In this document: positions 218 through 24,342 of the stretch, one piece after another
Position numbering within the stretch: position 1 is the stretch's first letter
Layout of the letters: each line of letters begins with the position of its first letter
Translations under genes and position numbers: made by a program
Assembly: GCA_050251055.1 (NCBI GenBank)
Contig: JBFWNL010000004.1
Location: 224,001-288,000, forward strand
DNA from: Bacteriovoracia bacterium
Lineage (GTDB): Bacteria; Bdellovibrionota; UBA1018; JBFWNL01
Length of the DNA: 64,000 nucleotides
Direction: 5' to 3'
Notes under the pieces: generated by a model
Told to the model about the DNA's origin: nothing
Seen by the model: only the letters and a program-made list of their open reading frames with translations
Database searches by the model: none

Positions 218-3200
218 ATGATTCAAAAAATCATTAGGTTCTCTGCAGAAAATCGGCTCCTCGTAATTATTTTTACCGCGATTGCCTGCATCGGTGGCGT
301 GCTTGCATTAAAGCATATTCCTATTGATGCGATTCCGGATCTTTCAGATACACAGGTCATTATCTATTCGAAATGGGACCGCTCACCGGATCTCGTTGAG
401 AATCAGCTTACGTATCCCATTGTTTCAGGGCTTTTAGGAGCTCCCAAGATCAAAGCTATTCGCGGATTTTCTGATTTTGGATTCTCCTACGTCTATGTGA
501 TTTTTGAGGATGGAACAGATCTCTATTGGGCCCGATCCCGAGTTTTAGAGTACCTCAATCAAATTATTCCGAAACTTCCAGAAGGAGCGGTCACCGAACT
601 CGGGCCCGACGCCACGAGTGTCGGTTGGGTTTATCAATATGCCCTGATCGACAAATCCAGAAAAAGAGATGCTTCCGATTTAAGAACTCTGCAGGACTGG
701 TCGCTTAAATTTCAACTCCAATCCGTGCCAGGTGTAGCCGAAGTGGCATCGGTCGGAGGGTTTCAAAAACAATACCAAGTTCAGGTGAATCCAACCAAAC
801 TGCGCACCTTCCATGTGACCTTTGATCAAGTGATGAAAGCGGTCCGCGACTCCAATCAGGAAAGCGGAGGTCGCGTGATCGAATTTTCCGGCACGGAAGC
901 AATGGTCCGAAGTCGGGGACTCATTTCCACGGTGGAAGATATTGAAAACACCGTTGTCGCTTACAATCCTCAAACGCGCGCTTCTGTTCTCGTCAAACAG
1001 GTCGCGCATGTTGCTCTTGGTCCTGAGATGCGACGAGGTGTAACCGATCTTAACGGCGAGGGTGACGCGGTGGGTGGTATCATTGTCATGCGCCACGGCG
1101 AAGACACGGTTTCGGTGATCGACCGCGTGAAACAAAAAATAGAAGAATTGAAACCGGGGTTACCCCACGGGGTGGAGGTCGTAACGGTGTATGATCGCTC
1201 GGATCTCATTCATCGTGCGATTAATACTCTCAAACATAGCCTCATTGAAGAACTGATTATTGTGAGCTTAGTCATTCTCTTTTTCCTCTGGCATTTTCCT
1301 TCGGCTTCCATTCCCATCATCACGATTCCGGTTTCCATTTTGCTCGCCTTCATTCCACTTTATTTCATGGGTATGACGGCCAACATCATGTCGTTAGCGG
1401 GTATTGCGATTTCGATTGGAGTGCTTGTCGATGGAGCAATTGTAGAAGTCGAAAATGCCTACAAGAAAATTCAGCACTGGGATCAAACGGGGAGAAAAGA
1501 AAGTTTTCATAAAGTCCGACTCGAAGCTTTATTGGAAGTCGGTCCTTCGGTTTTCTTTTCCCTGCTCGTCATCGCGGTGGCATTCCTCCCAATTTTTACC
1601 CTCGTCGATCAAGAGGGAAGGCTTTTTCGACCTCTCGCGTGGTCAAAGAATCTTACGATGGCCGTAGCCGCAATTCTTGCTATTACCTTAGATCCCGCAC
1701 TTCGTATGCTCTTTGCGCGCTTCGAACCTTTTCAGACGCGCTTTCGCTGGCTGAACCCTTTCCTGAACACCACACTCATTGGAAAATATTATGCCGAAGA
1801 AAAGCATCCGATCAGTCGAAGGCTGCATCGCCTCTATGAACCCGTTGTGCATTGGGTGCTTGCACGTCGAGGTTTGACTTTGGGTCTCGCAGCTCTGCTG
1901 ACGTTAACGACCGTTCCAGTCTATTTTCAATTGGGCCGAGAATTCATGCCGACCCTGCATGAAGGAAGTCTTCTTTATATGCCAACGGCTTTGCCTGGAA
2001 TGTCGATTCCAGAAGCAGCGCGTGTACTTCAAAAGCAAGATGAAATTTTAAAATCATTTCCTGAAGTGGAAACCGTTTTTGGGAAAGCCGGACGCGCCGA
2101 CACTTCGACCGATACAGCACCGGTCTCGATGGTCGAAACCACCATCATTCTTAAGCCAAAATCGGAATGGCGAAAAGTTGATCGCTGGTACTCCCGTCTT
2201 CCAGATATTCTTGAATTTCCATTCCGCCCCTTTTGGCCGGATCGCCTTGATGAGGAAATGCTCATTTCTGAAATGAATGAAAAACTTCAGTTTCCTGGGA
2301 TGCCCAATATCTGGACGATGCCTATTAAAAATCGCATCGATATGCTCTCTACCGGCATTCGAAGTGCTTTAGGTATTAAAATTTTTGGTCCTGATCTGAA
2401 GATAATTGAAACGATCGGGAAGAATATCGAAGAGGCGTTGAAAAATTCGTCTGGCGCACGGTCCGTGGTGGCTGAACGAGCTGCCAGTGGCTTTTTCTTG
2501 GATGTCGATTTCAACAGAACGGCTCTGTCAGCTTATGGTTTAAATCTTAAAGACGCGCAAGACCAGGCGATGGCTGCTATTGGAGGAGAGAATGTCTCGG
2601 TTTCACTTTCAGGACGCGAACGTTATCCGATCCAGGTACGCCTGGCGCGGGATTATCGAAATGACATTGAAACGATTAAAGCACTTTTCATTTCAACACC
2701 TTCCGGTGGAAGCATTCCCCTTTCAACGATTGCTGACATTCAAGTGAGACAAGGTCCGAGCATGGTACGAAATGAAAATGCCATGCCGGTTGGCTACGTT
2801 TTTGTTGATGTGGATCCCGCCAAAACGGACATCGGTAGTTTCGTCAAACGCGCCAAAGAAATTGTTCAAACGAAGGTTGAGCTGCCAGACGGCTACTTTC
2901 TTTCTTGGAGTGGACAATATGAAAATATGACACGGGTCAAAGACAGGTTGATGATCATTGTCCCACTCACTCTTTTGGTGATTGCTTTTCTCCTTTTTTT
3001 AAACACGCAGTCCTGGATCAAAGTGGGAATTGTGCTCCTGGCTGTTCCCTTTTCTTTGATTGGAGCGGTTTGGCTGCTCTGGCTTCTTGACTACAATCTT
3101 TCTATCGCGACGTGGGTCGGCATGATCGCGCTTATGGGTCTTGATGCCGAAACGGGTGTGTTTATGCTCCTCTACTTAGACCTGGCGTTTAATCGCCGAA

Positions 3201-3484
3201 AACAAGAAGGAAAGATGGCCACAAAACAGGATTTAACCGACTCCATTATTGAGGGAGCGGTCCATCGTCTTCGACCCAAGTTGATGACAGTGGCGGCAGC
3301 ATTTCTCGGTCTCTTTCCCATCATGTGGTCCACGGGAGCGGGCGCGGATGTGATGAAGCGAATTGCCGCCCCGATGATTGGGGGTCTGTCCACATCATTT
3401 CTACTCGAACTTCTGATCTATCCCGTCATTTTTTATATCTGGAAAATAAAACAAGAGCCAAAACTAAAAGTCGTTCGCCAATAA
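218..3484 (+). CDS. cusA: CusA/SilA-type heavy-metal RND efflux pump
   Basis: 1088 aa; DAIPDLSDTQVII, GPDATSVGWVYQY, HRLRPKLMT, MKRIAAPMIGG motifs. Confidence 0.95.
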   Translation: MIQKIIRFSAENRLLVIIFTAIACIGGVLALKHIPIDAIPDLSDTQVIIYSKWDRSPDLVENQLTYPIVSGLLGAPKIKAIRGFSDFGFSYVYVIFEDGTDLYWARSRVLEYLNQIIPKLPEGAVTELGPDATSVGWVYQYALIDKSRKRDASDLRTLQDWSLKFQLQSVPGVAEVASVGGFQKQYQVQVNPTKLRTFHVTFDQVMKAVRDSNQESGGRVIEFSGTEAMVRSRGLISTVEDIENTVVAYNPQTRASVLVKQVAHVALGPEMRRGVTDLNGEGDAVGGIIVMRHGEDTVSVIDRVKQKIEELKPGLPHGVEVVTVYDRSDLIHRAINTLKHSLIEELIIVSLVILFFLWHFPSASIPIITIPVSILLAFIPLYFMGMTANIMSLAGIAISIGVLVDGAIVEVENAYKKIQHWDQTGRKESFHKVRLEALLEVGPSVFFSLLVIAVAFLPIFTLVDQEGRLFRPLAWSKNLTMAVAAILAITLDPALRMLFARFEPFQTRFRWLNPFLNTTLIGKYYAEEKHPISRRLHRLYEPVVHWVLARRGLTLGLAALLTLTTVPVYFQLGREFMPTLHEGSLLYMPTALPGMSIPEAARVLQKQDEILKSFPEVETVFGKAGRADTSTDTAPVSMVETTIILKPKSEWRKVDRWYSRLPDILEFPFRPFWPDRLDEEMLISEMNEKLQFPGMPNIWTMPIKNRIDMLSTGIRSALGIKIFGPDLKIIETIGKNIEEALKNSSGARSVVAERAASGFFLDVDFNRTALSAYGLNLKDAQDQAMAAIGGENVSVSLSGRERYPIQVRLARDYRNDIETIKALFISTPSGGSIPLSTIADIQVRQGPSMVRNENAMPVGYVFVDVDPAKTDIGSFVKRAKEIVQTKVELPDGYFLSWSGQYENMTRVKDRLMIIVPLTLLVIAFLLFLNTQSWIKVGIVLLAVPFSLIGAVWLLWLLDYNLSIATWVGMIALMGLDAETGVFMLLYLDLAFNRRKQEGKMATKQDLTDSIIEGAVHRLRPKLMTVAAAFLGLFPIMWSTGAGADVMKRIAAPMIGGLSTSFLLELLIYPVIFYIWKIKQEPKLKVVRQ

Positions 3485-3724: not shown

Positions 3725-4492
3725 ATGGAAGGGAAACCGCTAACGGAGAACTGCAAACGTGTTTACGATTCGAAAGAGCATGTCTGTTTTGGCATCAGTC
3801 CCTTTAATAGCTATTTTTCCGAACGGCGTCTTCGCGACCTGGCGCATTGGGGACGCTCCCATTTCCAGTCGATGCATTTTTTTGTGCCAGATGTACCCGC
3901 CGCTTACACGCTTGAAGCTTTAGGCTACACGCCTGAGCGTGCCGCCTGGAAAGCTCGCCGCCAGGCAAATTGGCTAAGAAACAAAATTATCCGTTCCCTC
4001 ATCAGCCTCAGTTTCACTCACCACGAATCAGAAAAAATGGTCTTGGATTGGGAAAAACTAGTCAGCATTTCCCGGTTTCAAGAAATTTATAGGGAGATTC
4101 AAGGTCTTTTTCGTAAAGATTCCGCCTTTCGAGGTGCGTGTATCGAAGCTTCGCATTGGATTTTAGAAAAGCGAGTTGCGGATACTTTAGCTCTTACTGA
4201 TGAAGCTCTTTTACGAGCTGTTGAGTATTTTCTTGCCGAGATCCCCCTCTTCCTTGATGCAGCAAGCATTTTAAATCAAAAAGCATCGGTCTTCGCTTAC
4301 CACCAGAGTATTCCATTTCTCGAAAATCTTTATCGAAACCAGTTCTTCTGCCAGGTCCCATCCGAGCGACAGGGCTATGTCATTCTTGCGGCAAAAAAAG
4401 AAAATGAAATAAGGGACGCAAATTCACTTCACTTGCAGCCGCCTATCTCTGAATCAGGGAATTATGAAGTGTCTCTTCCATCTGAAGATTAG
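3725..4492 (+). CDS. tRNA-dependent cyclodipeptide synthase (CDPS), NYH subfamily
   Basis: HVCFGISPFNSYFS (HxxxGxS, catalytic Ser), YFLAEIPLF (YxxxExP), FAYH; RBS GGGGAGG. Confidence 0.92.
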   Translation: MEGKPLTENCKRVYDSKEHVCFGISPFNSYFSERRLRDLAHWGRSHFQSMHFFVPDVPAAYTLEALGYTPERAAWKARRQANWLRNKIIRSLISLSFTHHESEKMVLDWEKLVSISRFQEIYREIQGLFRKDSAFRGACIEASHWILEKRVADTLALTDEALLRAVEYFLAEIPLFLDAASILNQKASVFAYHQSIPFLENLYRNQFFCQVPSERQGYVILAAKKENEIRDANSLHLQPPISESGNYEVSLPSED

Positions 4493-4499
4493 ATCTTCG

Positions 4500-4655
4500 T
4501 TATGTTTTTTGGTTTCGATGAGTCCCGACACTTCGGCGAATCAAAAAAACTGTTAATGAGATGAGAGTCGCTATCAAAACAAGACCGATTAAAACCATGA
4601 CCCACATCATGATTCCACCCTAGAGGCCCTGACACATTGGGCACATTCCAATCAT
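4500..4655 (-). pseudogene. Small Met/Cys-rich membrane protein interrupted by an in-frame TAG
   Basis: MIGMCPMCQGL*GGIMMWVMVLIGLVLIATLISLTVFLIRRSVGTHRNQKT; TAG at 4620-4622. Confidence 0.55.
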
Positions 4656-4727
4656 TCCATCCCTACCGATCTCTTGCGCAATATTTAGTAATGGAAAAAG
4701 AACGAGATAGCATGGAAACACGTTCTA

Positions 4728-5081
4728 TCAAGCGGCGCGCCGCGTTTCCATCCGGCGGCAAGACTCTGCACATTTGCGACAGATATCGGCACAGCGCTGC
4801 ATTTCTTTGTCATCGGTGAATTTTGCGCAATCTTCAGCGCATGCATCACATAAACGCGTGCAAGTCCGGCAGGCATCCGCATAGAAATTTGAGTTGCGAA
4901 GCATAAAGTTCGCACTTGTTTGGCAAATCTCGGCACAATCCAATAAAAGACTAATGTGTTTCGTTTCAGCGTGACGTCCACCCTTATCGAGACAGTGCGG
5001 CAAAATTTCGTTACAAACCGCGTGGCAGCCAAGACAATTATCGATACATTCTTGAAAATCTTTTTGTGACATATGAGGCAT
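4728..5081 (-). CDS. Four-helix-bundle copper storage protein (Csp3/DUF326-like)
   Basis: Repeated CxxxCxxC motifs, LLLDCAEICQTSANFMLRNS, no signal peptide. Confidence 0.9.
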   Translation of the reverse strand: MPHMSQKDFQECIDNCLGCHAVCNEILPHCLDKGGRHAETKHISLLLDCAEICQTSANFMLRNSNFYADACRTCTRLCDACAEDCAKFTDDKEMQRCADICRKCAESCRRMETRRAA

Positions 5082-5159
5082 GGTTGATTCTCCTTTGATG
5101 GTTTCAAATAAATTTCAATTTTTTAGTGGGCCACGTATGGACCAGATCTCGCTGAGTGC

Positions 5160-5176
5160 TGCAATTTCAATACCAA
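5160..5176 (-). promoter_or_regulatory. Putative sigma54 -24/-12 promoter for the copper storage gene
   Basis: Minus strand TTGGTATTGAAATTGCA, GG-N10-GC, about 80 nt upstream of the start. Confidence 0.55.
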
Positions 5177-5350
5177 TGTACTTCGTTGCCAACCAAATTT
5201 AATATTTTAAACTGACAATAAGAGCTAGATACCGACTTTGGTTAGTAAAGTTAGAGAAAATTAACCCAAAGCTTTTCTGAACGAAAACCTCAAATCAAAC
5301 AGCTCGGTGATGAGGACCCCACTCAAAAGTCCTTCTCCGATCCCATATTT

Positions 5351-7543
5351 TCAAAGTAAAGCGACTTTCTGTTTTTGCGCTTGTTCAACACTTCCTTGCG
5401 ATTCGAAGCATGCGATCACTTGATTGAGATCCTTCCGAACAATTCTTTCGATCCAGTACATTCCTTCGGGATACTGTTCTTTAAAATGCTGTTTTTCATA
5501 TCCCGTGTTTAAAACGATTCGTTTGAATCCATAATTGTCGTAAAGATCGCGCGCATGCTCTTCGCCCTTCTCACCAAACCGTAGACGAGAATCAACTACG
5601 ATGACTTTATTTTTATCGAGTAGATGAAGATGTTCTCGCATTTCAGCAAAACTTCGATAGAAAAGAAGATTCTTTTTCTTTTCGCGGGCTAATTTTCTGA
5701 GATGGATTACATGAAGGTCGTCGTCGTCAATTACAACTCCATCAAAAGGTTGCGAAACCTCTAAGCGATTCACCGAGAAATCTATTTTTTCAAGCAGGAT
5801 TTTCGGCAAAAGCTTGATTCCTTTTCGATCACATTCATCCAAGAGACGTGAATTACCATAATTATGAGTCAGAAGAATTGATCGCTTTTCTAAACCGAAG
5901 CGTTCAATCGTATCTGTTCCTGTAATTTTTGCATCGCCGAGATCATAGTCCATGAAGACAAAATCCGATTGAGGAAAATTTGTCTCTTTAGCCCATGATT
6001 GAAAGCCCTCAAGGTCATGGAAAACAGTAGTTTCTATTTTGGGCGCCTGTCTTTTAATAAGATCATCGACCTTCTTTGCGAACTCTCTATCGTTTTCGAC
6101 AATAATTACCCGATGAAATCCATTCAAGCTCGTCGTTCCAACAAAAGAGCGTCGTGGCGCGTATTCCAAAAAAGCCAGGCGAATGGTTGTTCCTAGCCCT
6201 TCTTTAGATTCAATAGAAAGCTCGCCATCATCTTTTCGGACAATTTCAATCGCTTTGCTAAGACCTTTGCCTCGTCCTGCTCCACCTTTCGTTGAAAATC
6301 CGTACTGCTTTACGTCCTCTAAGAGTCCTTCGGGAATTCCGCAACCGGTATCTTCAATGAATATAGCGGCCAAATCGTTCGTTCTTTTCGTTGAGAGAGT
6401 GACACTTCCAGTTTCTTGGATGGATTCAACTGCATTATTCACAAGATTGGAAATAGCGGTTCCAAGTTCAACGGGATCTACCTTCACAAAAAGCCCAAGA
6501 TCGCTGGCTAAAAAATCAAAATGAATTTGCAGCCGATCCTGATGGCTGTACTCAATAGCTTTCAGTTCAACAAGATGGGCGATAAAAGCATCGAGTTGCA
6601 AAACGAAACTGCGTTCGACTTCATCAAGGCTCTCGGCTCCTACTTTCTGGAGCTGCTGCATTTTGACAGAAATATCGCTCGCCGCTTTCTGAAGGATGAG
6701 AAGATCATCTTCACCGATTTTTGAGCGAAGATTTTGGATCGAATGGAGCAAAATGCTCGTGTAAGATTTCAAATCATGAGCCAGTTGAGCCGCAAGCTTT
6801 CCGCGTTCCTCTTCGACCGACTGATTTAAAAGAGCTGATTGCTGCCGTTCAATACGATCCTGAAGTAAATCGAATTTATCTTTAATACTTTTTGTTTCGA
6901 CGAGCCTTTCTGATTCATAAGCGATCTTACTGTTCGAGTCGTTTCGGTCGAAATGCTCAATATAGTCACGCAGGTTTTCCAGAGGTTGGCTGATTCTTCT
7001 AAGTACAGCTTTCAAACGAAGGAGGAGAATCAAAAATAGGGCGATTGAGATAATGAGAGTCGTAAAAAACGTGTACCTAATGACTTGTTCCCGGATTGAA
7101 TTTGGAAAAGCCACTTTCACCGTAAAGTTTTCGGGACGATCTGGATACACAGAGAAAACTGACTGTTGAACGACGTAAGGAGATAAAAGAACATCGAGAT
7201 AACCCGTTTCCTTTAAATCTCGAATATCTCCACTTGCAAGTTCGGAAACAACCAACGGTCGAATCGCGTCGCCCGTGATGGCAATAGAGAGAACATCAGA
7301 GGTTTCGAGCGTTTTCGAAAGAATACCTCGAATCTCAATTTCATCGCCGATTTGAATTTTGGGCTTAATGATGGCTACCAATTGTTGCGTAAGAAGCCTG
7401 ATTTTACTGTGCTCACTATTTGAAAAGGCAACCGTAAGCACGCATGCGATCAAAGGCACTACTAGAAGAATCGAATAAACGAGAATGCCAAAAGAGGAAG
7501 AGCGAAATAAAAGTTGAAGAGTTTGGTGTTTATCTTTTCTCAT
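5351..7543 (-). CDS. Membrane hybrid histidine kinase with two C-terminal receiver domains
   Basis: Two TM segments around a periplasmic domain; H-box AHDLKS, N-box NLVNNA, DTGCG, GRGKGL; receivers IIVEND..MDYDL and VIDDD..VVDSRL. Confidence 0.9.
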   Translation of the reverse strand: MRKDKHQTLQLLFRSSSFGILVYSILLVVPLIACVLTVAFSNSEHSKIRLLTQQLVAIIKPKIQIGDEIEIRGILSKTLETSDVLSIAITGDAIRPLVVSELASGDIRDLKETGYLDVLLSPYVVQQSVFSVYPDRPENFTVKVAFPNSIREQVIRYTFFTTLIISIALFLILLLRLKAVLRRISQPLENLRDYIEHFDRNDSNSKIAYESERLVETKSIKDKFDLLQDRIERQQSALLNQSVEEERGKLAAQLAHDLKSYTSILLHSIQNLRSKIGEDDLLILQKAASDISVKMQQLQKVGAESLDEVERSFVLQLDAFIAHLVELKAIEYSHQDRLQIHFDFLASDLGLFVKVDPVELGTAISNLVNNAVESIQETGSVTLSTKRTNDLAAIFIEDTGCGIPEGLLEDVKQYGFSTKGGAGRGKGLSKAIEIVRKDDGELSIESKEGLGTTIRLAFLEYAPRRSFVGTTSLNGFHRVIIVENDREFAKKVDDLIKRQAPKIETTVFHDLEGFQSWAKETNFPQSDFVFMDYDLGDAKITGTDTIERFGLEKRSILLTHNYGNSRLLDECDRKGIKLLPKILLEKIDFSVNRLEVSQPFDGVVIDDDDLHVIHLRKLAREKKKNLLFYRSFAEMREHLHLLDKNKVIVVDSRLRFGEKGEEHARDLYDNYGFKRIVLNTGYEKQHFKEQYPEGMYWIERIVRKDLNQVIACFESQGSVEQAQKQKVALL

Positions 7544-8838
7544 TTTATTTCCTTTGCCATAGCCAAAGGACGTTCCAGCGAAATCGTTACGAATGAAAAC
7601 AGAAGGGACAGTATAACAACGGATACAAATGCTTCTTTTATAGATGGAGCTCCGTTTCTAAGCGTACTGATATAAAGACTGTATAATCCGACCCAGAGAT
7701 AACCGGGAATATTTTGAAAACTTAAGGCAGTCGCATAGTCTTGTCGTTTTACTTCTCCCATCAATTGATTCATCGACATATTTTGAATTGCGGACGTAGC
7801 AGTATGAAACAATGCGCCAAAAACAAAAATATAAGTGATCTGCACAAATACCGGAGTGTTCCCATAAAGGGCCAAGTACCCAAGGCTCATAACAAGAGTG
7901 AGCCCATAAAAAATGAGAAGATACTGTCTTGGAGTTACACACCGAATGAGCACTGGCAATAAATGTCCTTTTAAAATCCATCCGAACGCCGAGTAGCCGA
8001 GCATAAATGCCGCCATGAACGACCACTGAATGAGTTCAGCGCTTTGGTTATGCTCTCGACCTAACGATAGGGGGAGATAGCCAGCAATTATGACAGTCAT
8101 CATCCAGAACGAAAGATTGTAGATCGTCGCAATTTTTGCGCGAGGTGCTAAAAAGGTCACTTTAAAAATGTCTTTAAGAGGCGACACATGGAGCTGTTTG
8201 TCGCGATCTCCGAGTTGAAGATAATCCCGCCACAACGTCACAATACACGAAGCGTAGAGAGCGATGCCTATGAGAAATGTATGAGGAAGCCACTGCTTCT
8301 GTTCGAACACCCATGCCAAAGCGAAAGCCGCGATAACAGCAATCGTCGTAAAATATTTTCCGTAGTTTTGACTCGTAGTCAAACTCGTTGCAGCTACCTT
8401 CTCGTGATCATCATTCAAGCAACGCACCTTTATCGCATCCTGGTAAAAGGCTTCAATGGAACCAGAGCTAAGGGGCTTTGCTATTCCAATGAGAATTCCA
8501 TGAGCAATGAAAAGAATTCGCGCCATCGCACCATCGAAAACAAGCGCTACATACACACAGGCGAGCCCACTCATCACGAGTAACAAACTCAAAATGATAG
8601 AAGGAATTCGTCCAATGCGATCAGATATATAACCGCAAGGAACCTCTAGTAAGCCATTCAGTGTGAATTCAATAAGAGTAACGAGAGCTACGGTGTCTGC
8701 GGGAACCCCAAAGGAAAGCGCGAGGACACCAACAATTACTCGAAACAAAACGGAGTTGAATTGTACCGCCGCTGCATAGAGCGCGCGAAAGACTCCGAGG
8801 CGAATCAAAATGTCATGCACTGACATTTCTTGTTTCAT
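7540..8838 (-). CDS. MFS transporter (putative exporter)
   Basis: LEVPCGYISDRIGR (MFS motif A), SGSIEAFYQD, about 12 hydrophobic segments. Confidence 0.88.
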   Translation of the reverse strand: MKQEMSVHDILIRLGVFRALYAAAVQFNSVLFRVIVGVLALSFGVPADTVALVTLIEFTLNGLLEVPCGYISDRIGRIPSIILSLLLVMSGLACVYVALVFDGAMARILFIAHGILIGIAKPLSSGSIEAFYQDAIKVRCLNDDHEKVAATSLTTSQNYGKYFTTIAVIAAFALAWVFEQKQWLPHTFLIGIALYASCIVTLWRDYLQLGDRDKQLHVSPLKDIFKVTFLAPRAKIATIYNLSFWMMTVIIAGYLPLSLGREHNQSAELIQWSFMAAFMLGYSAFGWILKGHLLPVLIRCVTPRQYLLIFYGLTLVMSLGYLALYGNTPVFVQITYIFVFGALFHTATSAIQNMSMNQLMGEVKRQDYATALSFQNIPGYLWVGLYSLYISTLRNGAPSIKEAFVSVVILSLLFSFVTISLERPLAMAKEIK

Positions 8839-9689
8839 CGTGCGCTCACCCTCGACGAAGGAGATTTCGAGTCTAACAACTCGTCTCGAATGATATGAAT
8901 AATGTCTGTGATATGCTCATCAAACCTGAGAAGGCCGCGCCCGCAAATAGTTTCGTAATCTTTTTGGAAAGTCGACGTGAATCTTTCAAGAATTCGATAA
9001 GCGCCTTGGTCATACTTTCGATCAATCTTCTTACTTCTTAAAATTCGAAGAGCTAAGCCAAGCATACACGCTTGAGCAAAGGCACCATGATAAATGCCAA
9101 TCAGGGGTCGATCAATATCCCGAATCGCAGAGTATCTTGTTTCATCCCAAGGCTGGTCAAAGATTTCTTGCTCGTCGTGCGTGGTAATTACGATGTTTAA
9201 ATAATGATGTCCAAGCTCATGGACTAAAATTTCAGCCCACTTTACGGGGCAATCACTATCCATCCGATAGAGAATTTGGCCAAACGTTTGTGGATCTGAA
9301 GCAGATTCGAAGGGATCATCTATTGTGGTCTGCGCCAAACGAGGCTGAATGGCTTTAACAATTTTAAAGTATTCAGGCCACGTAGACGCGATCAGACTGA
9401 TTGCTTCCTGATAGATTTTTTCTTTTTCCGAGTAGATTTCACTTTCATGAGATCGGAAAATATCATTTCCAGTGACTAGCTTCCTGCGCTTTTGATCACG
9501 CAAGAATAGCTCACCCCACTGTTTAGATCTATTGAGATCTTCAGCCGAAAAATAACACGAGGACACAATCGGTAGACTTAATTTCGAAAGGTCTATTTTT
9601 GAAATTTCTGGCCGGGAAGAGAGAATCGCACGAACTCCCTCTTCCCGCAGAAACTCGACATAGGAACTGATCATTCCCAAGTCAAACAT
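8835..9689 (-). CDS. HEXXH-motif protein, aKG-HExxH peptide-modifying family
   Basis: ILVHELGHHYL plus YSAIRDIDRPLIGIYHGAF (variant of SPWRxDxRPxxGxxH); probable start ATG 9689 (MFDLG), not 9815. Confidence 0.8.
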   Translation of the reverse strand: MFDLGMISSYVEFLREEGVRAILSSRPEISKIDLSKLSLPIVSSCYFSAEDLNRSKQWGELFLRDQKRRKLVTGNDIFRSHESEIYSEKEKIYQEAISLIASTWPEYFKIVKAIQPRLAQTTIDDPFESASDPQTFGQILYRMDSDCPVKWAEILVHELGHHYLNIVITTHDEQEIFDQPWDETRYSAIRDIDRPLIGIYHGAFAQACMLGLALRILRSKKIDRKYDQGAYRILERFTSTFQKDYETICGRGLLRFDEHITDIIHIIRDELLDSKSPSSRVSAR

Positions 9690-9700
9690 CTTCGAAACTC

Positions 9701-9778
9701 TTAGTAACTTGCGCGAGCTTCGCCGATTAGTTTGTTCCTGAGAATCGCGAGATTGAACGAGCGCTTTCTGTTTTTCAT
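9701..9778 (-). CDS. Hidden 25-aa peptide MKNRKRSFNLAILRNKLIGEARASY, putative RiPP/pheromone precursor
   Basis: AAAGGAGG RBS (9787-9794) 8 nt before ATG; fits between the SBP stop and the HExxH start. Confidence 0.75.
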   Translation of the reverse strand: MKNRKRSFNLAILRNKLIGEARASY

Positions 9779-9811
9779 GGCTTTTGCCTCCTTTCATTTG
9801 ATTGACGTTTT

Positions 9812-11308
9812 TCATTTACGCACCAGATTCGCAATTTGAACGTCCTGGTACGAAAAGTCCCAAAACTTCACACTCATATTTTCCGAGTTCTTCACGGATA
9901 GCCCTCGGCGGTACCAGGTGGTGAACACGGGATAGAACAAAGGAATCGCAGGAATATCTGCAAAGAAAGTATCTTCCATTTGGTGTAGCACTCTGAGCTG
10001 GTGATCTTTCGCCGTTTGGTTCTCATAATCAATGAGCAAACGATTGAGCGTAGGACTGTAATAGCCAGAAAACTTTTCAATTATTCTTCCGAGGTAGCCA
10101 TCAAAGGTCGTAGATGGGTCAAAATTAATCGGAGAATCACCTTTCAGGATCATATGGAGATGACCCTCGCGAAATCCGCGAAGTACATCGTTAAATGGTA
10201 GAAACTGAACCTGGAGGTTTAGGCCGATGTCTTTGAACCGACCAACAAGGTATTTTTCAACCGCCATGTTCCCTTTAAATTTTTCTCGCGCGCCTAAAAC
10301 GACATTGCGTTCTTGAAGCGTCGTATTTTTTTCGATTAAAGCTCTCGCCATTTCAAGATCGATAAGATGACGTTTCTCGCGATGGCCCACATATCCACGC
10401 GGAATCATGCCGCCAGCGGGAATATCTTCTCCTCCTGCATATTCATGGAAAGCAATCGGATCGATGACGCTTGCGACAGCAAGCCGATTTTCCTTTTTCC
10501 GAAATATGCCGTGTTTGAAAGAAAAGACTAGAGCGTAAGTTCCAGCAATTTTCTGACTGTAAGAAAGTCCTTTCGGTAAAACCGATCGATTAACCTGTGA
10601 TTCAACGTCCGTAATCGTATCGAGCTCTTCCTTCAAGAACTTATTGATGGCTGTTTCAGAGTCTAATTTTTGGTAAATGATCTTTTGGAACTTCGCTCGC
10701 GCATCAAATCGTTCAGCGATGATTTGATCATCTCCAATTCGCACGATCTTGTAAGGACCGGTTCCCAAATAGTTCCCGTCCATCTTTTTAACGATGCAGC
10801 CCTTAGCGCTTGCCAATTTTTTCATTAGCAAAGGATAGTTCTTATTTTGAATCCGAATAACAAATCGAGAGTCATCGAGTGTTTGAAATCCATCACATGA
10901 TGTGCGTTGTATGCAGCCCCCAAGAGCCTTGAATTGTGAAAGGATTTCGTTTTTGTTTTTGAAAGCTTCAAGAATTGAATTTAGGACGTCTTGCGATCGA
11001 ACTGGAGAACCGTCATGAAACCGCTTGTTTCTATCAATCTCGAATTCAATCTCATTCGTCTCACGGCGAATTGTCCAACGAGAAGCAACCTCGGGGATGG
11101 GCGAAAGACTTTCATCCACGCCAACCAGGTGCTCAAATACATTATCAATCACCTTATTCGCATTGATTTCGTTCCCGCGCTTAAGCTCAAGATCGGGAAT
11201 CGCCGTAATCGGCACTCTAAGTACCGTGTTCGATGACACGGAATCGTTTTCCTGCGTACAGGCAGAAAATATTCCTATTGCTAAAGAAAAAAACAGAAGT
11301 AAGCGCAT
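9812..11308 (-). CDS. Orphan family-5 (Opp/Dpp-like) solute-binding lipoprotein
   Basis: Lipobox FSAC; FHDGSPVRSQDV, GTGPYKI, PAIPLFY; no permease or ATPase genes nearby. Confidence 0.88.
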   Translation of the reverse strand: MRLLLFFSLAIGIFSACTQENDSVSSNTVLRVPITAIPDLELKRGNEINANKVIDNVFEHLVGVDESLSPIPEVASRWTIRRETNEIEFEIDRNKRFHDGSPVRSQDVLNSILEAFKNKNEILSQFKALGGCIQRTSCDGFQTLDDSRFVIRIQNKNYPLLMKKLASAKGCIVKKMDGNYLGTGPYKIVRIGDDQIIAERFDARAKFQKIIYQKLDSETAINKFLKEELDTITDVESQVNRSVLPKGLSYSQKIAGTYALVFSFKHGIFRKKENRLAVASVIDPIAFHEYAGGEDIPAGGMIPRGYVGHREKRHLIDLEMARALIEKNTTLQERNVVLGAREKFKGNMAVEKYLVGRFKDIGLNLQVQFLPFNDVLRGFREGHLHMILKGDSPINFDPSTTFDGYLGRIIEKFSGYYSPTLNRLLIDYENQTAKDHQLRVLHQMEDTFFADIPAIPLFYPVFTTWYRRGLSVKNSENMSVKFWDFSYQDVQIANLVRK

Positions 11309-11311
11309 AAG

Positions 11312-11530
11312 TTATTCGCCCACCTCTTTGAAATTACATTTGAGTTGACCCCACTTTTCCAAAAGCTGATCGCCTCGACGGCAGGCGAGATTGAGTACAG
11401 TTTCACAATACTCAGGATCGTTGGTTAAGTTGGCACGAACCTGCTCAATCGTTGAAATAATGGAATGAAGATCAGCTTGAAAATCATGAATCATGTCTTC
11501 TGCTGAGAGTTTATTTTTCGCCATCATCAC
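11312..11530 (-). CDS. 72-aa stand-alone HisKA/DHp-like protein, putative phosphotransfer or connector
   Basis: EDMIHDFQADLHSIISTIE resembles an H-box helix; translationally coupled to the regulator. Confidence 0.55.
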   Translation of the reverse strand: MMMAKNKLSAEDMIHDFQADLHSIISTIEQVRANLTNDPEYCETVLNLACRRGDQLLEKWGQLKCNFKEVGE

Positions 11531-12897
11531 AACTCGGCCTCCTTCAATTCATCGAGAAGACTGGTAACCTTCTTTTGTGAATAACCTAAGTGCCGCATGA
11601 GAGGACGAATGGGACGATCCTTCCCAAGCTTTCTCCGGAAATGATCTGCAACTTCTTTCTCCAGTTCAGCGAGAAACGCTTTAAGACCAACCTCTTCGAC
11701 GTACTTGATCTGTCGTTCGGTCAGGAGATTGTAAGCATGCTTGCCCGGATATGAGTTTGTTGCAATTTTATGAGGAAGATCTTCAACAGAAAATACAGGC
11801 TTTTTTGTTTTCGCTTTGGACTTCCAAAATTCAAAAAATTCTCTCTCGTTACCCGGCCAATCGTATTCGAGCAGCGCTTTCTTAGCACTTGGTCGGATCG
11901 CCATTCCACGGCCTTCTCCAAAATTCTTCTGCACATGATTAAGGAGAAGTTCAATATCCTGGCGACGTTCTTTGAGCGGTTTGAACTTTACCGTGACCCC
12001 CGAGATGCGATTAAAGAAATCTTCACGAAATTGTTTAGCAGAAATTTTTTCGTGTAATTCTTCGCATGTCGCCGTGATGAGCTTGAAATCAGAATAAAGT
12101 CGCTCGTTTGATCCAACAGGTGAGAAATGTCCGTTTGCCAATGGAACAAGAAGAGTGTGTTGCATACGAGTGCCAATCGTTCCGATTTCGTCAATAAAGA
12201 GCGTTCCTTGATCAGCCTGCGCAATTTTTCCGATTCGCTTTTTATGTGCTCCCGTGAAAGCGCCGTCGACATGCCCAAGCAATTCGGATTGCAGCAATGT
12301 ATCGGACAAACTATTCGCGTTGATTTCGACAAAGCGATCCTTATGACCGTGCCATCCTTCATGCAATATTTCGGCTAAAACGCTTTTGCCTACGCCGGAA
12401 GGACCCGTGATGAGAATAGGTAACTTTTTAATTCCCATGCTCTCGACAAGAATATCAAACTGCTGAAGATGATCGGGGTCTTGGGTAATCATCTTTTGAG
12501 CAATGAGTTTACGAAGTCTCGTCTTCTGTGATGAACCACGATAGTTCAAAAGAATTTCATCAACGGCTGTGGCCTTAAAAGGTTTCGTTAAATAGTCATC
12601 GCATTCTTTTCCGTATCCTTCTTCCACATAAGCTTCTTCGCGATGGCCCGAAAGAATAACGCTGTAAACGCCCTTCTTCTTGAGAAGCGGAATCAGATCG
12701 AAACCGGCTCTTCGTTCATCGAGATCAAGATCAACGAACGAAAGATCGAACTGTCCGTTTGAAATTTTGTCGAGAGCCTGAGCCTTGGAGGCAGCCTGTT
12801 GAATTTCGTGACCTTGATTAGAAAGCTGCTTCGCAAGATTGTGTCGATGCAGATCATCATCTTCGACAACTAAAATTTTTAACGACGATTGTTTCAC
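11527..12897 (-). CDS. NtrC-family sigma54-dependent response regulator
   Basis: Receiver (VVEDD, FVDLDL, KPF), Walker A GPSGVGKS, intact GAFTGA, FIDEIG, WPGNERE. Confidence 0.93.
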   Translation of the reverse strand: MKQSSLKILVVEDDDLHRHNLAKQLSNQGHEIQQAASKAQALDKISNGQFDLSFVDLDLDERRAGFDLIPLLKKKGVYSVILSGHREEAYVEEGYGKECDDYLTKPFKATAVDEILLNYRGSSQKTRLRKLIAQKMITQDPDHLQQFDILVESMGIKKLPILITGPSGVGKSVLAEILHEGWHGHKDRFVEINANSLSDTLLQSELLGHVDGAFTGAHKKRIGKIAQADQGTLFIDEIGTIGTRMQHTLLVPLANGHFSPVGSNERLYSDFKLITATCEELHEKISAKQFREDFFNRISGVTVKFKPLKERRQDIELLLNHVQKNFGEGRGMAIRPSAKKALLEYDWPGNEREFFEFWKSKAKTKKPVFSVEDLPHKIATNSYPGKHAYNLLTERQIKYVEEVGLKAFLAELEKEVADHFRRKLGKDRPIRPLMRHLGYSQKKVTSLLDELKEAEL

Positions 12898-12958
12898 TAC
12901 TCAGACACTCCAAACTTTCGATTACGCGTAGCACAAAATTTTTAGTCTCCAAAATAAA

Positions 12959-12992
12959 TTCGTATCACTACACGTATTACTAGTGATACGAA
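12959..12992. promoter_or_regulatory. Palindromic operator / enhancer candidate
   Basis: TTCGTATCACTA-N10-TAGTGATACGAA perfect 12-bp inverted repeat with a third CGTATTACTA half-site inside. Confidence 0.7.
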
Positions 12993-13098
12993 ATCGAGCA
13001 TCCGCAAACCCGCATTCTATCTGACTCAGAGAAGACAAGATCATGAATCTACAGACTTTTTAAGAAGTTGTGGCTTCGACCAGCATCACTTTTCTTGC

Positions 13099-13115
13099 TC
13101 GGCATAAAAAATGCG
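13099..13115 (+). promoter_or_regulatory. Putative sigma54 -24/-12 promoter for the regulator/transfer genes
   Basis: TCGGCATAAAAAATGCG, GG-N10-GC, about 110 bp downstream of the palindrome. Confidence 0.6.
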
Positions 13116-13159: not shown

Positions 13160-13369
13160 ATGGAACTTCAATACGGACAAACCAAAAATCAGAACCAGAT
13201 CAAGAAACCCTCGGACATTTTCAAACACTGTCCTCACTGCAAAAGTCGCGACCAATTTCGATTTGATGGCGAAGTCTTTTGCAATTCGTGCGGATGGAAC
13301 AGTGTCCTTGTGAGTGCGGAGTGTTCCTACGGTGTCGCTTCTCGAATGAGAAAGCCACTTCCATCATAA
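13160..13369 (+). CDS. Small zinc-ribbon protein
   Basis: CPHC...CNSC; RBS AAAGGAG before ATG 13160. Confidence 0.65.
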   Translation: MELQYGQTKNQNQIKKPSDIFKHCPHCKSRDQFRFDGEVFCNSCGWNSVLVSAECSYGVASRMRKPLPS

Positions 13370-13390
13370 GCCGCACGCACTTCACCTTTC

Positions 13391-13424
13391 ACTAAATAGG
13401 GAAAACAACAGTCAGTACAGACAG
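13391..13424 (-). repeat. Left copy of a 34-bp inverted repeat flanking the sigma-4 gene
   Basis: 26/34 identical (16/17 in the core) to the reverse complement of 14021-14054. Confidence 0.7.
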
Positions 13425-13451
13425 TGGTCATCAGACCTAAGGAGCTAATGC

Positions 13452-13988
13452 GTGAAAAATAATGATCAATTTCATAACTCGAAAATAAACCAAACAGACA
13501 TTCCATGGAAAGACGCGAACGGAAATCTAAAACCAGATAAAGAAATTAAAAAAATGGCAGCCCAGTGGAAAGCGTCTACTTGGGAGGCTTTTTTGGCAGA
13601 CACTGGAATGTCAGAAAACATTGGAAGTGATACTGAAAACGAAGTTTTGATAGCAGATACTGCGGGCTACGAAAGATTTTCTGCGGATGAATCCCTTAGC
13701 AGTCTTTTATCCGACATCGAATCTTTCCCAAGAGTCGCGAAAAGCTTAAAGAAAGCAATCTCGAAACTTTCTCCTCGGCAAAAGGAACTCGTCGGGCTGT
13801 ATTATTGGGAAGGTCTCTCACAGATGCAAATTGCTGCCACTCTTGGGATCACCCAGCAGACAGTAAGCATCCAACTCGTCCGAGCCATTCAGAGACTGCG
13901 CATCGAGATATTTCTCGGAATCAAATCTGACTCGCCGGCGCCTGAAAAATCTCAATCCGAGCATTCTGTCTGTATGCAAATTGGATAA
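13452..13988 (+). CDS. Sigma-70 region 4-like HTH protein
   Basis: LSPRQKELVGLYYWEGLSQMQIAATLGITQQTVSIQLVRAIQRLR; RBS AAGGAG. Confidence 0.85.
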   Translation: MKNNDQFHNSKINQTDIPWKDANGNLKPDKEIKKMAAQWKASTWEAFLADTGMSENIGSDTENEVLIADTAGYERFSADESLSSLLSDIESFPRVAKSLKKAISKLSPRQKELVGLYYWEGLSQMQIAATLGITQQTVSIQLVRAIQRLRIEIFLGIKSDSPAPEKSQSEHSVCMQIG

Positions 13989-14020
13989 GAGAAATAATTC
14001 CAACGAGTTGGGTGGTGGGC

Positions 14021-14054
14021 CTGTCTGTACAGACTGTGCATTCCCCCTATTAGT
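14021..14054 (+). repeat. Right copy of the 34-bp inverted repeat, possible promoter for a sigma-like factor
   Basis: CTGTCTGTACAGACTGTGCATTCCCCCTATTAGT, enclosed by a stem (about 14006-14022 with 14057-14074). Confidence 0.7.
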
Positions 14055-14093
14055 AGAGGCCCATCACTTCAACTTCAAATCAGAGGAGACTCA

Positions 14094-14264
14094 ATGTCAC
14101 CAAAACAAAAATTGAAGGCGCAAATTCAAGCGTGGATGAGAAAGCTTAAACGCAGTCTTGCAAATGAACAAAAAGCTCATATCTATGCTCACGTACAAGA
14201 CTTTCGAACTTACAAGGATGAGTTAATCAGCAAATACTACCACCTTCTTCCGAGAAATTTTTAA
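14094..14264 (+). CDS. 56-aa basic hypothetical protein (below ORF-track cutoff)
   Basis: GAGGAG RBS; MSPKQKLKAQIQAWMRKL...; stop abuts the next GTG. Confidence 0.6.
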   Translation: MSPKQKLKAQIQAWMRKLKRSLANEQKAHIYAHVQDFRTYKDELISKYYHLLPRNF

Positions 14265-14648
14265 GTGCGGATGTCTTTACCCTGGGCGGAGGAGATCGCA
14301 ACAGACCCCAGAAAAATCCAAGAGCTGATCGAAAATAAAGCTTTGGAAGATTGGTATTCAGAACATTCAGGAGAGTCAAAAGTGCGGAAAGTCGACGATT
14401 CTACATTCAGTTTCCTTTCGAATGAAAAACGCAGAATTCGAAAATTCATTTCCAAGCTTTCGGATGTGGAGCAAGTCATCGTGTATTTACGCTATTGGGA
14501 AAATCTCATGACGATCGAAATCGCATCCGTTGTAGGACTTTCTGAAAATAAAATTCATGACCTTTTAGAGCGTGCCATAAAGAAACTTAGAATTTTTTAC
14601 ATTCAGGAATTGAGCAGAGTGCAAGCCACAGCGCTTGCCTGCGTATGA
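14265..14648 (+). CDS. Second sigma-70 region 4-like HTH protein
   Basis: LSDVEQVIVYLRYWENLMTIEIASVVGLSENKIHDLLERAIKKLR. Confidence 0.8.
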   Translation: MRMSLPWAEEIATDPRKIQELIENKALEDWYSEHSGESKVRKVDDSTFSFLSNEKRRIRKFISKLSDVEQVIVYLRYWENLMTIEIASVVGLSENKIHDLLERAIKKLRIFYIQELSRVQATALACV

Positions 14649-14703
14649 AGGACACTTACATTTTTATTCATCAACAGAATTTTAATTCAAAGGATTTTAA
14701 TTA

Positions 14704-15072
14704 ATGGAAAATACCGAACAACGAAATGATCGTGGACATGAACTTTTTTGGATGAACCCCGTGACGGGAAAACGCCTTCATGCAGGCAAAGCTTTTTATG
14801 ATGAGAAGTTTTGCGAATATCGACTCAAAATCGATGAAGCCTCTGAAGAGAAACAATATTATTTGAAACCCATCGGCCTCATCAACGACGAGCTTCGCTA
14901 TCGCTTAGAACAGGTCATCAAAAAGGGCGGAAAGTTTCATCACCGCGAAGAAAAGGGAGATGGGAAAAGTAGCGATGCCACCGGAGGCGAAGTCTATATC
15001 GATTTTGGCTCCAGCATGAAAGTGCTCGTGCTCAGTTTCAATCCCCATTCCAAGAGAAAGGACGTTGCTTAA
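14704..15072 (+). CDS. Hypothetical ICE protein
   Basis: 122-aa ORF with RBS at the head of the transfer genes. Confidence 0.6.
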   Translation: MENTEQRNDRGHELFWMNPVTGKRLHAGKAFYDEKFCEYRLKIDEASEEKQYYLKPIGLINDELRYRLEQVIKKGGKFHHREEKGDGKSSDATGGEVYIDFGSSMKVLVLSFNPHSKRKDVA

Positions 15073-15077
15073 AAAAC

Positions 15078-15380
15078 ATGACCAAGTCCACATACGGTTG
15101 GGTTTTTATGATCGGATTTATCGGAATGCTTTCACTGATGCTCTTAAGTGAGCCTGCGATGGCGTTTGGCTTTGAAAGTAAAATGCAAAATCTCACAGGC
15201 CAGCTCATCAATACGGTGCTGCCTTTAATGTCGATTCTAGGTCTTGTGTACGCAGCGATTCTCGCGCTTTCGGGCGATGCCGCTGCCAAAGCAAAAATCA
15301 TTACGGTGATCGCTGTCTCTGTGGTCGGGTTTCTCGCTCCCGCCATCATTCAGTGGTTACAACGCGCGACGGGTAACTAA
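15078..15380 (+). CDS. VirB2/TrbC-like pilin
   Basis: Signal peptide ending PAMA, then two hydrophobic helices; lies before VirB3/VirB4-like genes. Confidence 0.75.
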   Translation: MTKSTYGWVFMIGFIGMLSLMLLSEPAMAFGFESKMQNLTGQLINTVLPLMSILGLVYAAILALSGDAAAKAKIITVIAVSVVGFLAPAIIQWLQRATGN

Positions 15381-18979: not shown

Positions 18980-18981
18980 AT

Positions 18982-19842: not shown

Positions 19843-19861
19843 CTTATTATTAGGAGAAATT

Positions 19862-21153: not shown

Positions 21154-21156
21154 TTT

Positions 21157-24316: not shown

Positions 24317-24342
24317 CTGTTATCAGCTTGAATTTCGAGCTG

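Follow-up and report, generated by a model that had tools for sequence, protein, structure and literature searches.

A putative peptide-signalling module facing the transfer genes of an integrative and conjugative element family in Bdellovibrionota

Introduction

In the window analyzed here, a stretch of 64,000 nucleotides from contig JBFWNL010000004.1 of a Bacteriovoracia bacterium, seven densely packed genes on the minus strand diverge from the transfer genes of an integrative and conjugative element (ICE). They encode a sigma54-dependent response regulator of the enhancer-binding protein (EBP) type, a 72-residue protein with a conserved histidine (p72), a family-5 solute-binding protein (SBP), a 25-residue peptide, an enzyme with an HExxH motif, a transporter of the major facilitator superfamily (MFS), and a membrane hybrid histidine kinase. 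The question raised by this locus is whether these parts form one signalling circuit, in which a peptide is made, exported, sensed and relayed to activate the ICE transfer genes. We put the probability of this full chain at about 45%. One part of it, that the relay controls a sigma54 promoter of the transfer operon, is likely on its own.

Gene order and conservation of the module

The minus strand from 12897 to 5351 is a single dense gene string, whose junctions are overlaps of 4 nt or gaps of a few bases. An earlier note on this DNA had described a tight minus-strand operon of seven genes, and all seven were found in place at 5351–12897. That observation is confirmed, and it is strengthened by the comparison with other genomes.

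By means of alignment-based scans and searches of genomes, nine distinct loci were identified, namely the window, L005, L006, L007, L009, L010, L022, L023, and L024. L005 and L006 (the latter identical in sequence to L008) are from metagenome-assembled genomes (MAGs) of Bacteriovoracaceae, L022, L023, and L024 were taken from another three genomes in this phylum, and L007, L009, and L010 are short contigs. The six long loci (the window, L005, L006, L022, L023, and L024) were compared by blastp of the window proteins on the five others and by listings of their open reading frames (ORFs).

The gene order EBP, small His protein, SBP, micro-ORF, HExxH enzyme, MFS transporter, and kinase is common to the window, L005, L006, L024, and L022. 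In these five loci the module diverges from orthologous ICE genes, which encode two sigma70 region-4 proteins, o122, TrbC, o105, and, where the contig reaches it, VirB4. L023 has the SBP, the micro-ORF, the HExxH enzyme, the MFS transporter, and a kinase lacking receiver domains, preceded by a trypsin-like gene; no EBP, small His protein or recognizable transfer genes were found in it. The five-gene core travels together in two different contexts. These data agree with the proposals that the genes stay together as one set (complete in five of the six long loci, the core in the sixth) and that the set is linked to an ICE, which holds in five of the six.

The candidate precursor peptide

The micro-ORF (9701–9778, minus strand) encodes the 25-residue candidate precursor peptide MKNRKRSFNLAILRNKLIGEARASY and is conserved upstream of the HExxH gene. 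It was masked by the mechanically called 326-aa form of the HExxH ORF (8835–9815), which covers the same DNA in another frame. Because the homologues of the enzyme are 257–299 aa long (16 found among 5.8 billion proteins) and the closer full-length ones open with MFDLG, which corresponds to Met43 of the long form, the start of the enzyme was placed at M43 (9689). In the structural model, the 40 N-terminal residues of the long form have a predicted local distance difference test score (pLDDT) of 36–63. The corrected start leaves a 122-nt spacer that holds the micro-ORF, and an AGGAGG sequence is located 8 nt ahead of its ATG.

In eight of the nine distinct loci the HExxH gene is immediately preceded by the micro-ORF, which always lies between the stop of the SBP gene and the start of the HExxH gene. 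Besides that of the window, the peptides are MKTNKKEGRKQFNLAILKNKLIGEARASY in L024, MNRNKKMRVKRRTFNLSLLKNKLIGEVRASYP in L005, MKTNKKLGIKRRSFNLALLKNKLIGEVRASYP in L006, MSTVTFNLEIHEDQILGEARASM in L009, and MDSYDFDLDIHQDEVIGELRGSELGH in L023, while those of L022 (...EDVIINLDIFDDEIMSEARVSA) and L007 (...GITFNLDIHRDPVLGEIRGSVDIGGGGY) have unclear starts. With the exception of the latter two, the precursors are 23–32 aa long (6 of the 8 loci with a micro-ORF). A Leu, a Glu, an Arg, and a Ser are invariant, and the N-terminus is basic in four loci and acidic or neutral in the other four.

Six pairwise comparisons over 19 codons of the four close copies revealed 7–10 differences at the third codon position, 1–3 at the first, and 0–2 at the second, with 6–9 synonymous versus 2–5 non-synonymous changes. 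A search motif derived from these same sequences occurs a single time in the six-frame translation of the 3.77 Mb genome, and there is one occurrence per locus. Judging from this coding-type substitution pattern, the micro-ORF is a genuine small gene, and a conserved small ORF, which the earlier note had proposed to look for, is present in eight of the nine loci. A short precursor gene conserved at the protein level beside a modifying enzyme is the arrangement expected of a peptide made by the ribosome and modified after translation (RiPP).

Two specific modifications were considered and dropped. A PqqA-like Glu...Tyr cross-link does not fit, as the C-terminal Tyr is missing in L009, L022, and L023, and neither does oxidative cleavage of the PflC type at an ARMD-like site, as the position after the invariant Glu is occupied by A, V, I or L and not by a consistently small residue.

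The HExxH enzyme

The 284-aa enzyme is encoded at 8835–9689 on the minus strand with the corrected start. Its residues 136–274 matched the NCBIfam model TIGR04267 ("aKG-HExxH-type peptide beta-hydroxylase", aKG being alpha-ketoglutarate) with 58.4 bits at a cut-off of 40, and the protein scored 59.8 bits with the same model in the genome-wide search. All 15 sequences share H199, E200, and H203, and H204 is nearly invariant. The ESASDP and RPLxGxxH blocks have aligned counterparts in ChlH, and a profile of 15 homologues searched against the PDB matched ChlH (8s5f) at an E-value of 0.0019, the alignment bringing together the SxSD, HExxH, and RPxxGxxH blocks. The AlphaFold2 model has a pLDDT of 86; its top four Foldseek rows are chains of 8s5f (E-values of 1.3e-6 to 6.7e-6, probability 1.00, TM-scores of 0.58–0.60), followed by SjiH (22ob) at 6.9e-4, and all later rows have E-values above 0.2. 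By its hidden Markov model score, motifs, and predicted fold, the protein belongs to the aKG-HExxH family (TIGR04267 / IPR026337). The membership proposed in the earlier note is borne out by the score above the cut-off and the fold match to 8s5f.

Two reports describe the members of this family as Fe/aKG oxygenases that act on RiPP precursors and hydroxylate Asp, His, Phe, Gln, Asn or Pro at the beta position, with additional oxidative C-terminal cleavage by PflC and PosC (PMC12636437, PMC13060819). The conserved Asn/Asp of the F-N/D-L motif in the micro-ORF peptides may be a reasonable target of such a modification.

The subfamily is rare. It comprised 17 protein clusters in the first database, and a search of 1.84 billion gave 33 representative clusters at E ≤ 1e-30. 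A scan with the single HExxH sequence gave no relative, whereas the alignment-based scans did find relatives. It occurs in 7 of 401 sampled genomes of the phylum, that of the window included, with one more distant hit, and in none of 40 genomes of the host's own order, in which two weak matches (E-values of ~6e-4) are other HExxH proteins.

The gene following that of the enzyme (7540–8838, minus strand) encodes the MFS transporter, a candidate exporter (MFS_1, 47.4 bits). Its orthologues are present in all five other long loci at 34–78% identity.

The sensor and relay proteins

The SBP gene (9812–11308, minus strand; SBP_bac_5, 110.8 bits) encodes a probable lipoprotein. Its hydrophobic N-terminus ends in Cys17, and among the orthologues export-type N-termini are present in six of six and a lipoprotein-type Cys in four of six. 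No ABC permease or ATPase gene was found beside the SBP gene in any of the six long loci, and the protein is in this sense an orphan. The SBP profile matched DppE (2e-31), OppA (2e-28), MppA (5e-23), PrgZ (1.9e-14), and NikA (~1e-11) in the PDB. By profile similarity, peptide binders are the nearest relatives of the protein and nickel binders are far more distant, in agreement with the peptide-binding type assigned to it in the earlier note.

The 730-aa membrane hybrid histidine kinase (5351–7543, minus strand; HATPase_c, 57.5 bits) has two transmembrane segments flanking a periplasmic domain of ~116 aa (residues 41–156), followed by an H-box with His256, the N, G1, and G2 boxes, and two receiver-like domains. 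H256, N366, N370, D398, G400, G402, G425, and G427 are invariant across the orthologues. The Response_reg match of the window kinase (22.4 bits) is under the cut-off of 30.2; Pfam matches were obtained in four of six orthologues, with a best E-value of 5.4e-8, and the first receiver domain carries END / FMDYDL / LLTHN / LLPK signatures, as read from the alignment. The protein thus has the phospho-His box, the ATP boxes, and the receiver with an acceptor Asp that define a hybrid kinase. Co-folding of SBP residues 18–498 with the periplasmic domain (41–156), for which alignments of six rows were used, gave a score of 0.01 against a mark of 0.32, which counts neither for nor against a complex of the two.

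The EBP gene (11527–12897, minus strand) encodes a receiver domain, an AAA+ domain, and a C-terminal tail resembling a helix-turn-helix. The Pfam matches are Response_reg (64.3 bits), Sigma54_activat (158.6 bits), and AAA_lid_14. The receiver domain has the FVDLDL motif with the Asp at residue 54, and the AAA+ domain has a Walker A motif and an intact GAFTGA loop, so that all the features of a sigma54 activator are in place. The best NCBIfam matches, NtrC (210 bits, cut-off 559) and LuxO (149 bits, cut-off 800), do not give it equivalog status. Its identities to the orthologues in L024, L005, L006, and L022 are 85%, 64%, 62%, and 33%, respectively.

Between the EBP and SBP genes, p72 (11312–11530, minus strand) is predicted to be a two-helix hairpin (helices 3–34 and 39–71, pLDDT of 84 in the AlphaFold2 model). 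His22 is invariant in five of five orthologues and His15 is present in four of five. In five of five loci whose kinase bears receiver domains, p72 and the EBP are present as well, and the sole receiver-less kinase, that of L023, is accompanied by neither. Because of its position, the invariant His, and this co-occurrence, we regard p72 as a candidate phosphotransfer protein that resembles the dimerization and histidine phosphotransfer (DHp) domain of kinases. As a two-helix hairpin with an invariant His it stands outside the histidine phosphotransfer (Hpt) family, and it may work like an Hpt protein all the same. In the Atlas, a cluster of 67-aa hypothetical proteins that is commonest in Bdellovibrionota is a close structural match of p72 (TM-scores of 0.81/0.86), and small hairpin proteins of the p72 type may be widespread in this phylum.

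The control region

A spacer of 263 nt separates the start of the EBP gene (12897) from the first plus-strand gene (13161). It contains a palindromic element at 12959–12992 with 12-nt arms (12959–12970 and 12981–12992) that are 100% complementary; its three half-sites of the GTATYNC type make it a candidate EBP binding site. The pattern of three half-sites has a single match in the island and two genome-wide. Downstream, a predicted sigma54-type −24/−12 promoter of the GG-N10-GC form (CGGCATAAAAAATGCG, 13100–13115, plus strand) faces the transfer genes, its start some 125–140 nt from the half-sites, but the window carries a weak copy of it. At sequence level this site is not significant alone, and the weight that we give it comes from the strong orthologous sites in relatives: TGGCACAAAAACTGCG in L024, TGGCACAGAAATTGCC in L006, and TGGCACGGAAATTGCC in L005, each with 1–2 mismatches to the consensus. 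Equivalent three-half-site elements are located 125–140 nt upstream of the promoter GG in these three loci. The element and the promoter are kept in position in the four loci, while the remaining spacer has drifted to 59% mean column identity. Of the palindrome and promoter claimed in the earlier note, the palindrome is perfect, the arrangement recurs in four loci, and the promoter is good in three relatives; the promoter copy of the window itself is the part that fell short.

The host genome encodes rpoN (sigma54). With the GG/GC spacing and an upstream site within 80–150 bp, the features of a sigma54-dependent promoter are present as predictions from the DNA. In L022, the EBP has a degenerate sigma54-contact loop (GSHSEA) and the GG-N10-GC promoter is missing. 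We count this joint loss of the FT loop and the promoter, a covariation of activator and promoter, in favor of control of the promoter by the relay.

These observations also bear on another explanation, according to which the module is a self-regulated RiPP cluster carried as ICE cargo, its activator targeting the cluster or other genes and its adjacency to the transfer genes being meaningless. The core of L023 indeed exists without ICE genes or an EBP, the window promoter is weak, and the ICE synteny may be merely inherited. However, no sigma54-type site was found ahead of the sensor operon, conserved sigma54 promoters with their upstream element face the transfer genes at a constant distance in four loci, and the FT loop and the promoter are lost together in L022. 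We consider the cargo explanation improbable, and control of the transfer operon by the relay remains the preferred reading of this region.

Two further features of the spacer are recorded here. A block at 12929–12944, TAGCACAAAATTT(T/G)T(A), is conserved near the EBP start in the window, L024, L005, and L006. It was considered as a sigma54 promoter of the sensor operon and dropped, as it has AG where GG is expected; its opposite strand in L005 and L006 may be better read as a sigma70-type −10 region and resembles a TG-extended −10 sequence with a TTTACA −35 sequence, and the window copy appears poorer. In L005, the upstream element is separated from the transfer genes by an insertion at 5078–6467, a gene of 453 aa without a Pfam family that is preceded by a perfect TGGCACGAGTTTTGCA promoter, and the transfer operon retains its own half-site element and promoter beyond the insertion.

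Proposed mechanism and alternatives

We propose that the module is a self-contained cell-cell signalling unit of an ICE family in Bdellovibrionota. The 25-aa micro-ORF would encode a precursor peptide, which the Fe/aKG HExxH oxygenase would modify, most likely by hydroxylation, with the Asn/Asp of the F-N/D-L motif as the candidate site. The product would be released by the MFS transporter and captured outside the cytoplasm by the OppA/DppA-like orphan SBP, which would present it to the periplasmic domain of the kinase. The phosphoryl group would then pass from His256 of the kinase to the kinase receiver, to His22 of p72, and to the receiver of the EBP, with p72 acting as a minimal dimeric DHp-like phosphotransferase. 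Finally, the EBP would bind the three-half-site palindrome and, with the sigma54 of the host, open the promoter ahead of the ICE regulator and type IV secretion operon. This model is favored because it is the simplest one that uses every conserved part; the substrate of the enzyme, the export, the ligand, the phosphotransfer route, and the switching of transfer on or off by the signal are what we infer in it. The model follows the interpretation given in the earlier note, which is supported in part: all of the checks suggested there that lend themselves to computation favored it.

A number of observations weigh against this model at one step or another, and several of them have other explanations. 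As regards the peptide, L010, whose HExxH protein is the most distant (33% identity), has no micro-ORF between the SBP and HExxH genes. No protease or leader-cleavage motif is conserved across the loci, proteases being sporadic (the trypsin-like gene in L023 only and an S51 peptidase in L022 only). The MFS transporter is no more than a candidate exporter, and the peptide has no export signal. The last point would suit an intracellular regulator, whose hydroxylation, dependent on Fe, aKG, and O2, reports the metabolic or oxygen state in the manner of a prolyl-hydroxylase switch, with the SBP and the MFS transporter importing an unrelated solute. Oxygenases dependent on aKG are natural sensors of O2, iron, and the state of the tricarboxylic acid cycle. 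Such a switch would nevertheless not account for the constant inheritance of the peptide and the enzyme together with an SBP that is exported, an MFS transporter, and a kinase bearing a periplasmic domain, and we know of no bacterial intracellular peptide-hydroxylation switch of this kind; it seems very improbable.

As regards the enzyme, the HExxH gene of L024 matches profile positions 4–115 and 202–281 with 97 nt between them, and hence its HExxH core is deleted and its frame is broken, although the micro-ORF, SBP, MFS, kinase, and relay genes of this locus look intact. The lesion (L024 9485–10012; G049/G464:C25:25342–26011) could be a sign of decay, a "listener-only" element or an assembly error. 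Retention of the SBP, kinase, relay, and micro-ORF beside a broken enzyme gene is what one would expect if sensing and production were separate, that is, if the SBP and the kinase detected a foreign peptide (derived from prey, cell wall or recipient), with the relay still controlling the ICE promoter, and the micro-ORF, HExxH enzyme, and MFS transporter made an antimicrobial RiPP or a competing inhibitor peptide such as iCF10 of pCF10. The relatives of the SBP, which include murein-peptide and oligopeptide binders, are compatible with a foreign ligand, and adjacency alone ties the peptide to the SBP. This separation is still unlikely in our judgment, since the five core genes occur together in all six long loci, including L023 outside an ICE, the micro-ORF shares an operon with the SBP and enzyme genes and is placed between them, and the peptide is short and lacks a leader of the bacteriocin type. 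A peptide sensed by the module that makes it remains our preferred reading.

As regards the relay, p72 had no sequence match in Pfam, NCBIfam or the PDB and none to Hpt or HisKA even at E ≤ 10, and a search among proteins of near length gave nothing useful. None of its Foldseek rows was below an E-value of 0.4, the neighbors at that level including DHp domains and many generic hairpins; the resemblance of the model to DHp domains is not significant, and any hairpin will resemble one. A different role of p72, as an Sda-like kinase inhibitor or a TraM-like anti-activator while the kinase phosphorylates the EBP directly, would agree with the missing Hpt and HisKA matches and be otherwise compatible with the proposed model. 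Sda and TraM are likewise small helical proteins, and a TraM complex (2q0o_C) is among the weak fold neighbors. Against such a role, the His in helix 1 is invariant in all five orthologues, p72 is found only where the kinase carries receiver domains, and eight of ten Atlas rows align p72 to HisKA_3 or HisKA, all of them under the naming bar. We regard inhibition as rather unlikely and retain phosphotransfer as the working role. In the EBP orthologues of L005 and L006, GSFTDG and GSFTGV, respectively, replace GAFTGA.

As regards the promoter, the window copy (CGGCATAAAAAATGCG) keeps GG-N10-GC and has 4 mismatches to the 16-nt consensus TGGCACN5TTGCW, which leaves it off the list of sites with up to 3 mismatches and makes it the weakest of the four. 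A relaxed pattern matched 115 times genome-wide and once in the island, where ~1.8 matches would be expected by chance in an island of this size. Lastly, the five ICE-linked loci share one ICE backbone and are not five independent observations, L023 being the only independent one, and all loci are from MAGs or metagenome contigs.

The island and its other genes

The ICE transfer and maintenance genes occupy 13161–27546 on the plus strand, as assigned by Pfam and by synteny with L005, L006, L022, and L024. They encode a Zn-ribbon protein, two sigma70 region-4 proteins, a TrbC/VirB2 pilin, a VirB4-like ATPase, a TrbI/VirB10 protein, and an FtsK-type coupling protein, and a large serine recombinase gene lies at the right end of the island. 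A Replic_Relax-like protein scored 20.4 bits, under the cut-off of 25.3, and is a weak relaxase call. At 22104–24316, the genes of the VirB2/VirB4/VirB10 type are paired with the FtsK/SpoIIIE-type coupling ATPase and this Replic_Relax-like protein, a combination that is more usual in monoderm elements. In L022, three adjacent tyrosine recombinase genes and a resolvase gene are inserted among the ICE regulator genes (3935–7807), and two GNAT genes and the S51 peptidase gene follow the kinase gene.

The island extends over ~59.6 kb (~191,900–251,550 of contig C4, its right end at ~27,550 of the window). Its GC content is 0.44 versus 0.57 in the flanks, with a step from 0.44 to 0.59 at ~27,550. 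Type IV secretion genes, a coupling ATPase, a recombinase, and a compositional island, all read from the genes and base composition, together mark the element as a predicted ICE, with a weak relaxase match. The GC contrast and the position of the host, in another order than the Bacteriovoracaceae MAGs and in the same phylum Bdellovibrionota, suggest acquisition across orders. The flanking host genes were considered as the halves of a split target gene and dropped because they are unrelated (OmpA family and YecM-HAD).

The right arm of the island is the transfer module and the left arm is cargo. Within the window, the island includes a cyclodipeptide synthase gene (3725–4492, plus strand; CDPS, 214 bits) beside an AcrB-type RND pump gene (218–3484), without a counterpart of the synthase in the five related long loci. 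Cyclodipeptides have themselves been proposed as signals, and the element may thus carry a second small-molecule system. A gene for a Cys-rich DUF326 protein (4728–5081, minus strand) lies just downstream of the kinase gene and is not kept in the related loci. The island continues for ~32 kb beyond the window start (G000:C4:~191,900–224,000; L034 and L035), where the left-arm cargo looks related to metals or metalloids: a DsbH-like thioredoxin protein, a Pyr_redox_2-VTT fusion, a MerR regulator, a radical SAM protein with DUF3641, a SAM methyltransferase, a PHO4 transporter, and an outer-membrane efflux protein. At the left edge of the island, an ORF of 157 aa (G000:C4:191959–192432; L034 5959–6432) with a helix-turn-helix and a partial match to the serine-recombinase family "Recombinase" may be a remnant of an earlier insertion.

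Comparison with known systems

Conjugation is already known to be under quorum-type control in diderms, where the signals are acyl-homoserine lactones, and in monoderms, where they are imported peptides. If the proposed model is true, a modified peptide sensed at the envelope of a diderm by a pair of binding protein and kinase would join these two worlds and add a new signal chemistry for the aKG-HExxH oxygenases, which were recognized only recently. The regulation of transfer by mobile elements of Bdellovibrionota would come into view for the first time, possibly together with an example of a minimal DHp-only phosphotransfer protein. Seven genes and about 260 bp of control DNA could be rebuilt in a laboratory host and might yield a new orthogonal part for signalling. 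No description of this combination of parts was found in the main texts of the open-access literature, which accords with the earlier note, whose author knew of no such system in a diderm ICE. We advance it only tentatively, as possible rather than probable, that this is the first enzymatically modified, gene-encoded peptide autoinducer system in a diderm, with a cassette of precursor, aKG-HExxH enzyme, and MFS transporter, an orphan SBP on a hybrid kinase, a DHp-only p72, and a sigma54 activator that decides the expression of ICE conjugation genes.

In Vibrio, LuxP-LuxQ, LuxU, and LuxO comprise a periplasmic SBP with a hybrid kinase, a small His phosphotransfer protein, and a sigma54 activator with receiver and AAA+ domains. 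The module resembles this system in its SBP–kinase pair, small His protein, sigma54 activator, and output through a sigma54 promoter, here predicted from the genes. The likeness, first drawn in the earlier note, holds for the hybrid kinase and for the receiver–AAA+ activator with GAFTGA, but not for an Hpt-domain phosphotransfer protein, as LuxU is a four-helix Hpt protein and p72 is a hairpin of 72 aa without an Hpt match. LuxP belongs to another SBP class and binds AI-2, whereas the SBP of the module is of family 5 with a candidate peptide ligand. LuxO targets the Qrr small RNAs, whereas the EBP faces an ICE transfer operon and reaches 149 bits on the LuxO model (cut-off 800). Unlike in the LuxPQ system, the signal synthase would consist of a precursor peptide and an aKG-HExxH enzyme.

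Small peptides govern the transfer of pCF10 (cCF10/iCF10, PrgZ, PrgX) and ICEBs1 (RapI-PhrI) in monoderms. As in these, a small gene-encoded peptide accompanies a conjugative element, and PrgZ is a family-5 SBP lipoprotein that is a detectable relative of the SBP described here (E-value of 1.9e-14). The peptides of pCF10 and ICEBs1 are imported through Opp permeases to cytoplasmic receptors, whereas the module has no permease and has a membrane kinase and a candidate phosphorelay; its peptide appears to be enzymatically modified and its host is a diderm. In diderms, transfer of the Ti plasmid (TraI/TraR/TraM) and of ICEMlSymR7A is under quorum control by acyl-homoserine lactones. These elements, like the one described here, encode their own signal production and sensing beside the transfer genes in a diderm host. 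They differ in the acyl-homoserine lactone signal and its cytoplasmic LuxR-type receptor and have no kinase, SBP or sigma54.

The ChlBH, BpmH, PflC/PosC, and PesO clusters share with the module a gene for an HExxH Fe/aKG oxygenase, either stand-alone or fused, beside a short precursor gene and a transporter gene (PMC12636437, PMC13060819; 8s5f). Unlike the known aKG-HExxH RiPP clusters, the module has no radical SAM enzyme, MNIO or other maturase, its precursor is not similar to the described aKG-HExxH precursors, and the cluster is wired to an SBP, a kinase, an EBP relay, and an ICE. Its layout also resembles that of staphylococcal Agr (AgrD/AgrB/AgrC/AgrA), an operon that encodes a precursor peptide along with the functions that mature and export it and a membrane kinase as the sensor. 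The Agr kinase, unlike that of the module, senses a thiolactone peptide directly, and Agr is a monoderm system that has no SBP, phosphorelay or sigma54. The individual parts have precedents in these systems, and the module would bring them together as quorum-type control of conjugation in a new combination.

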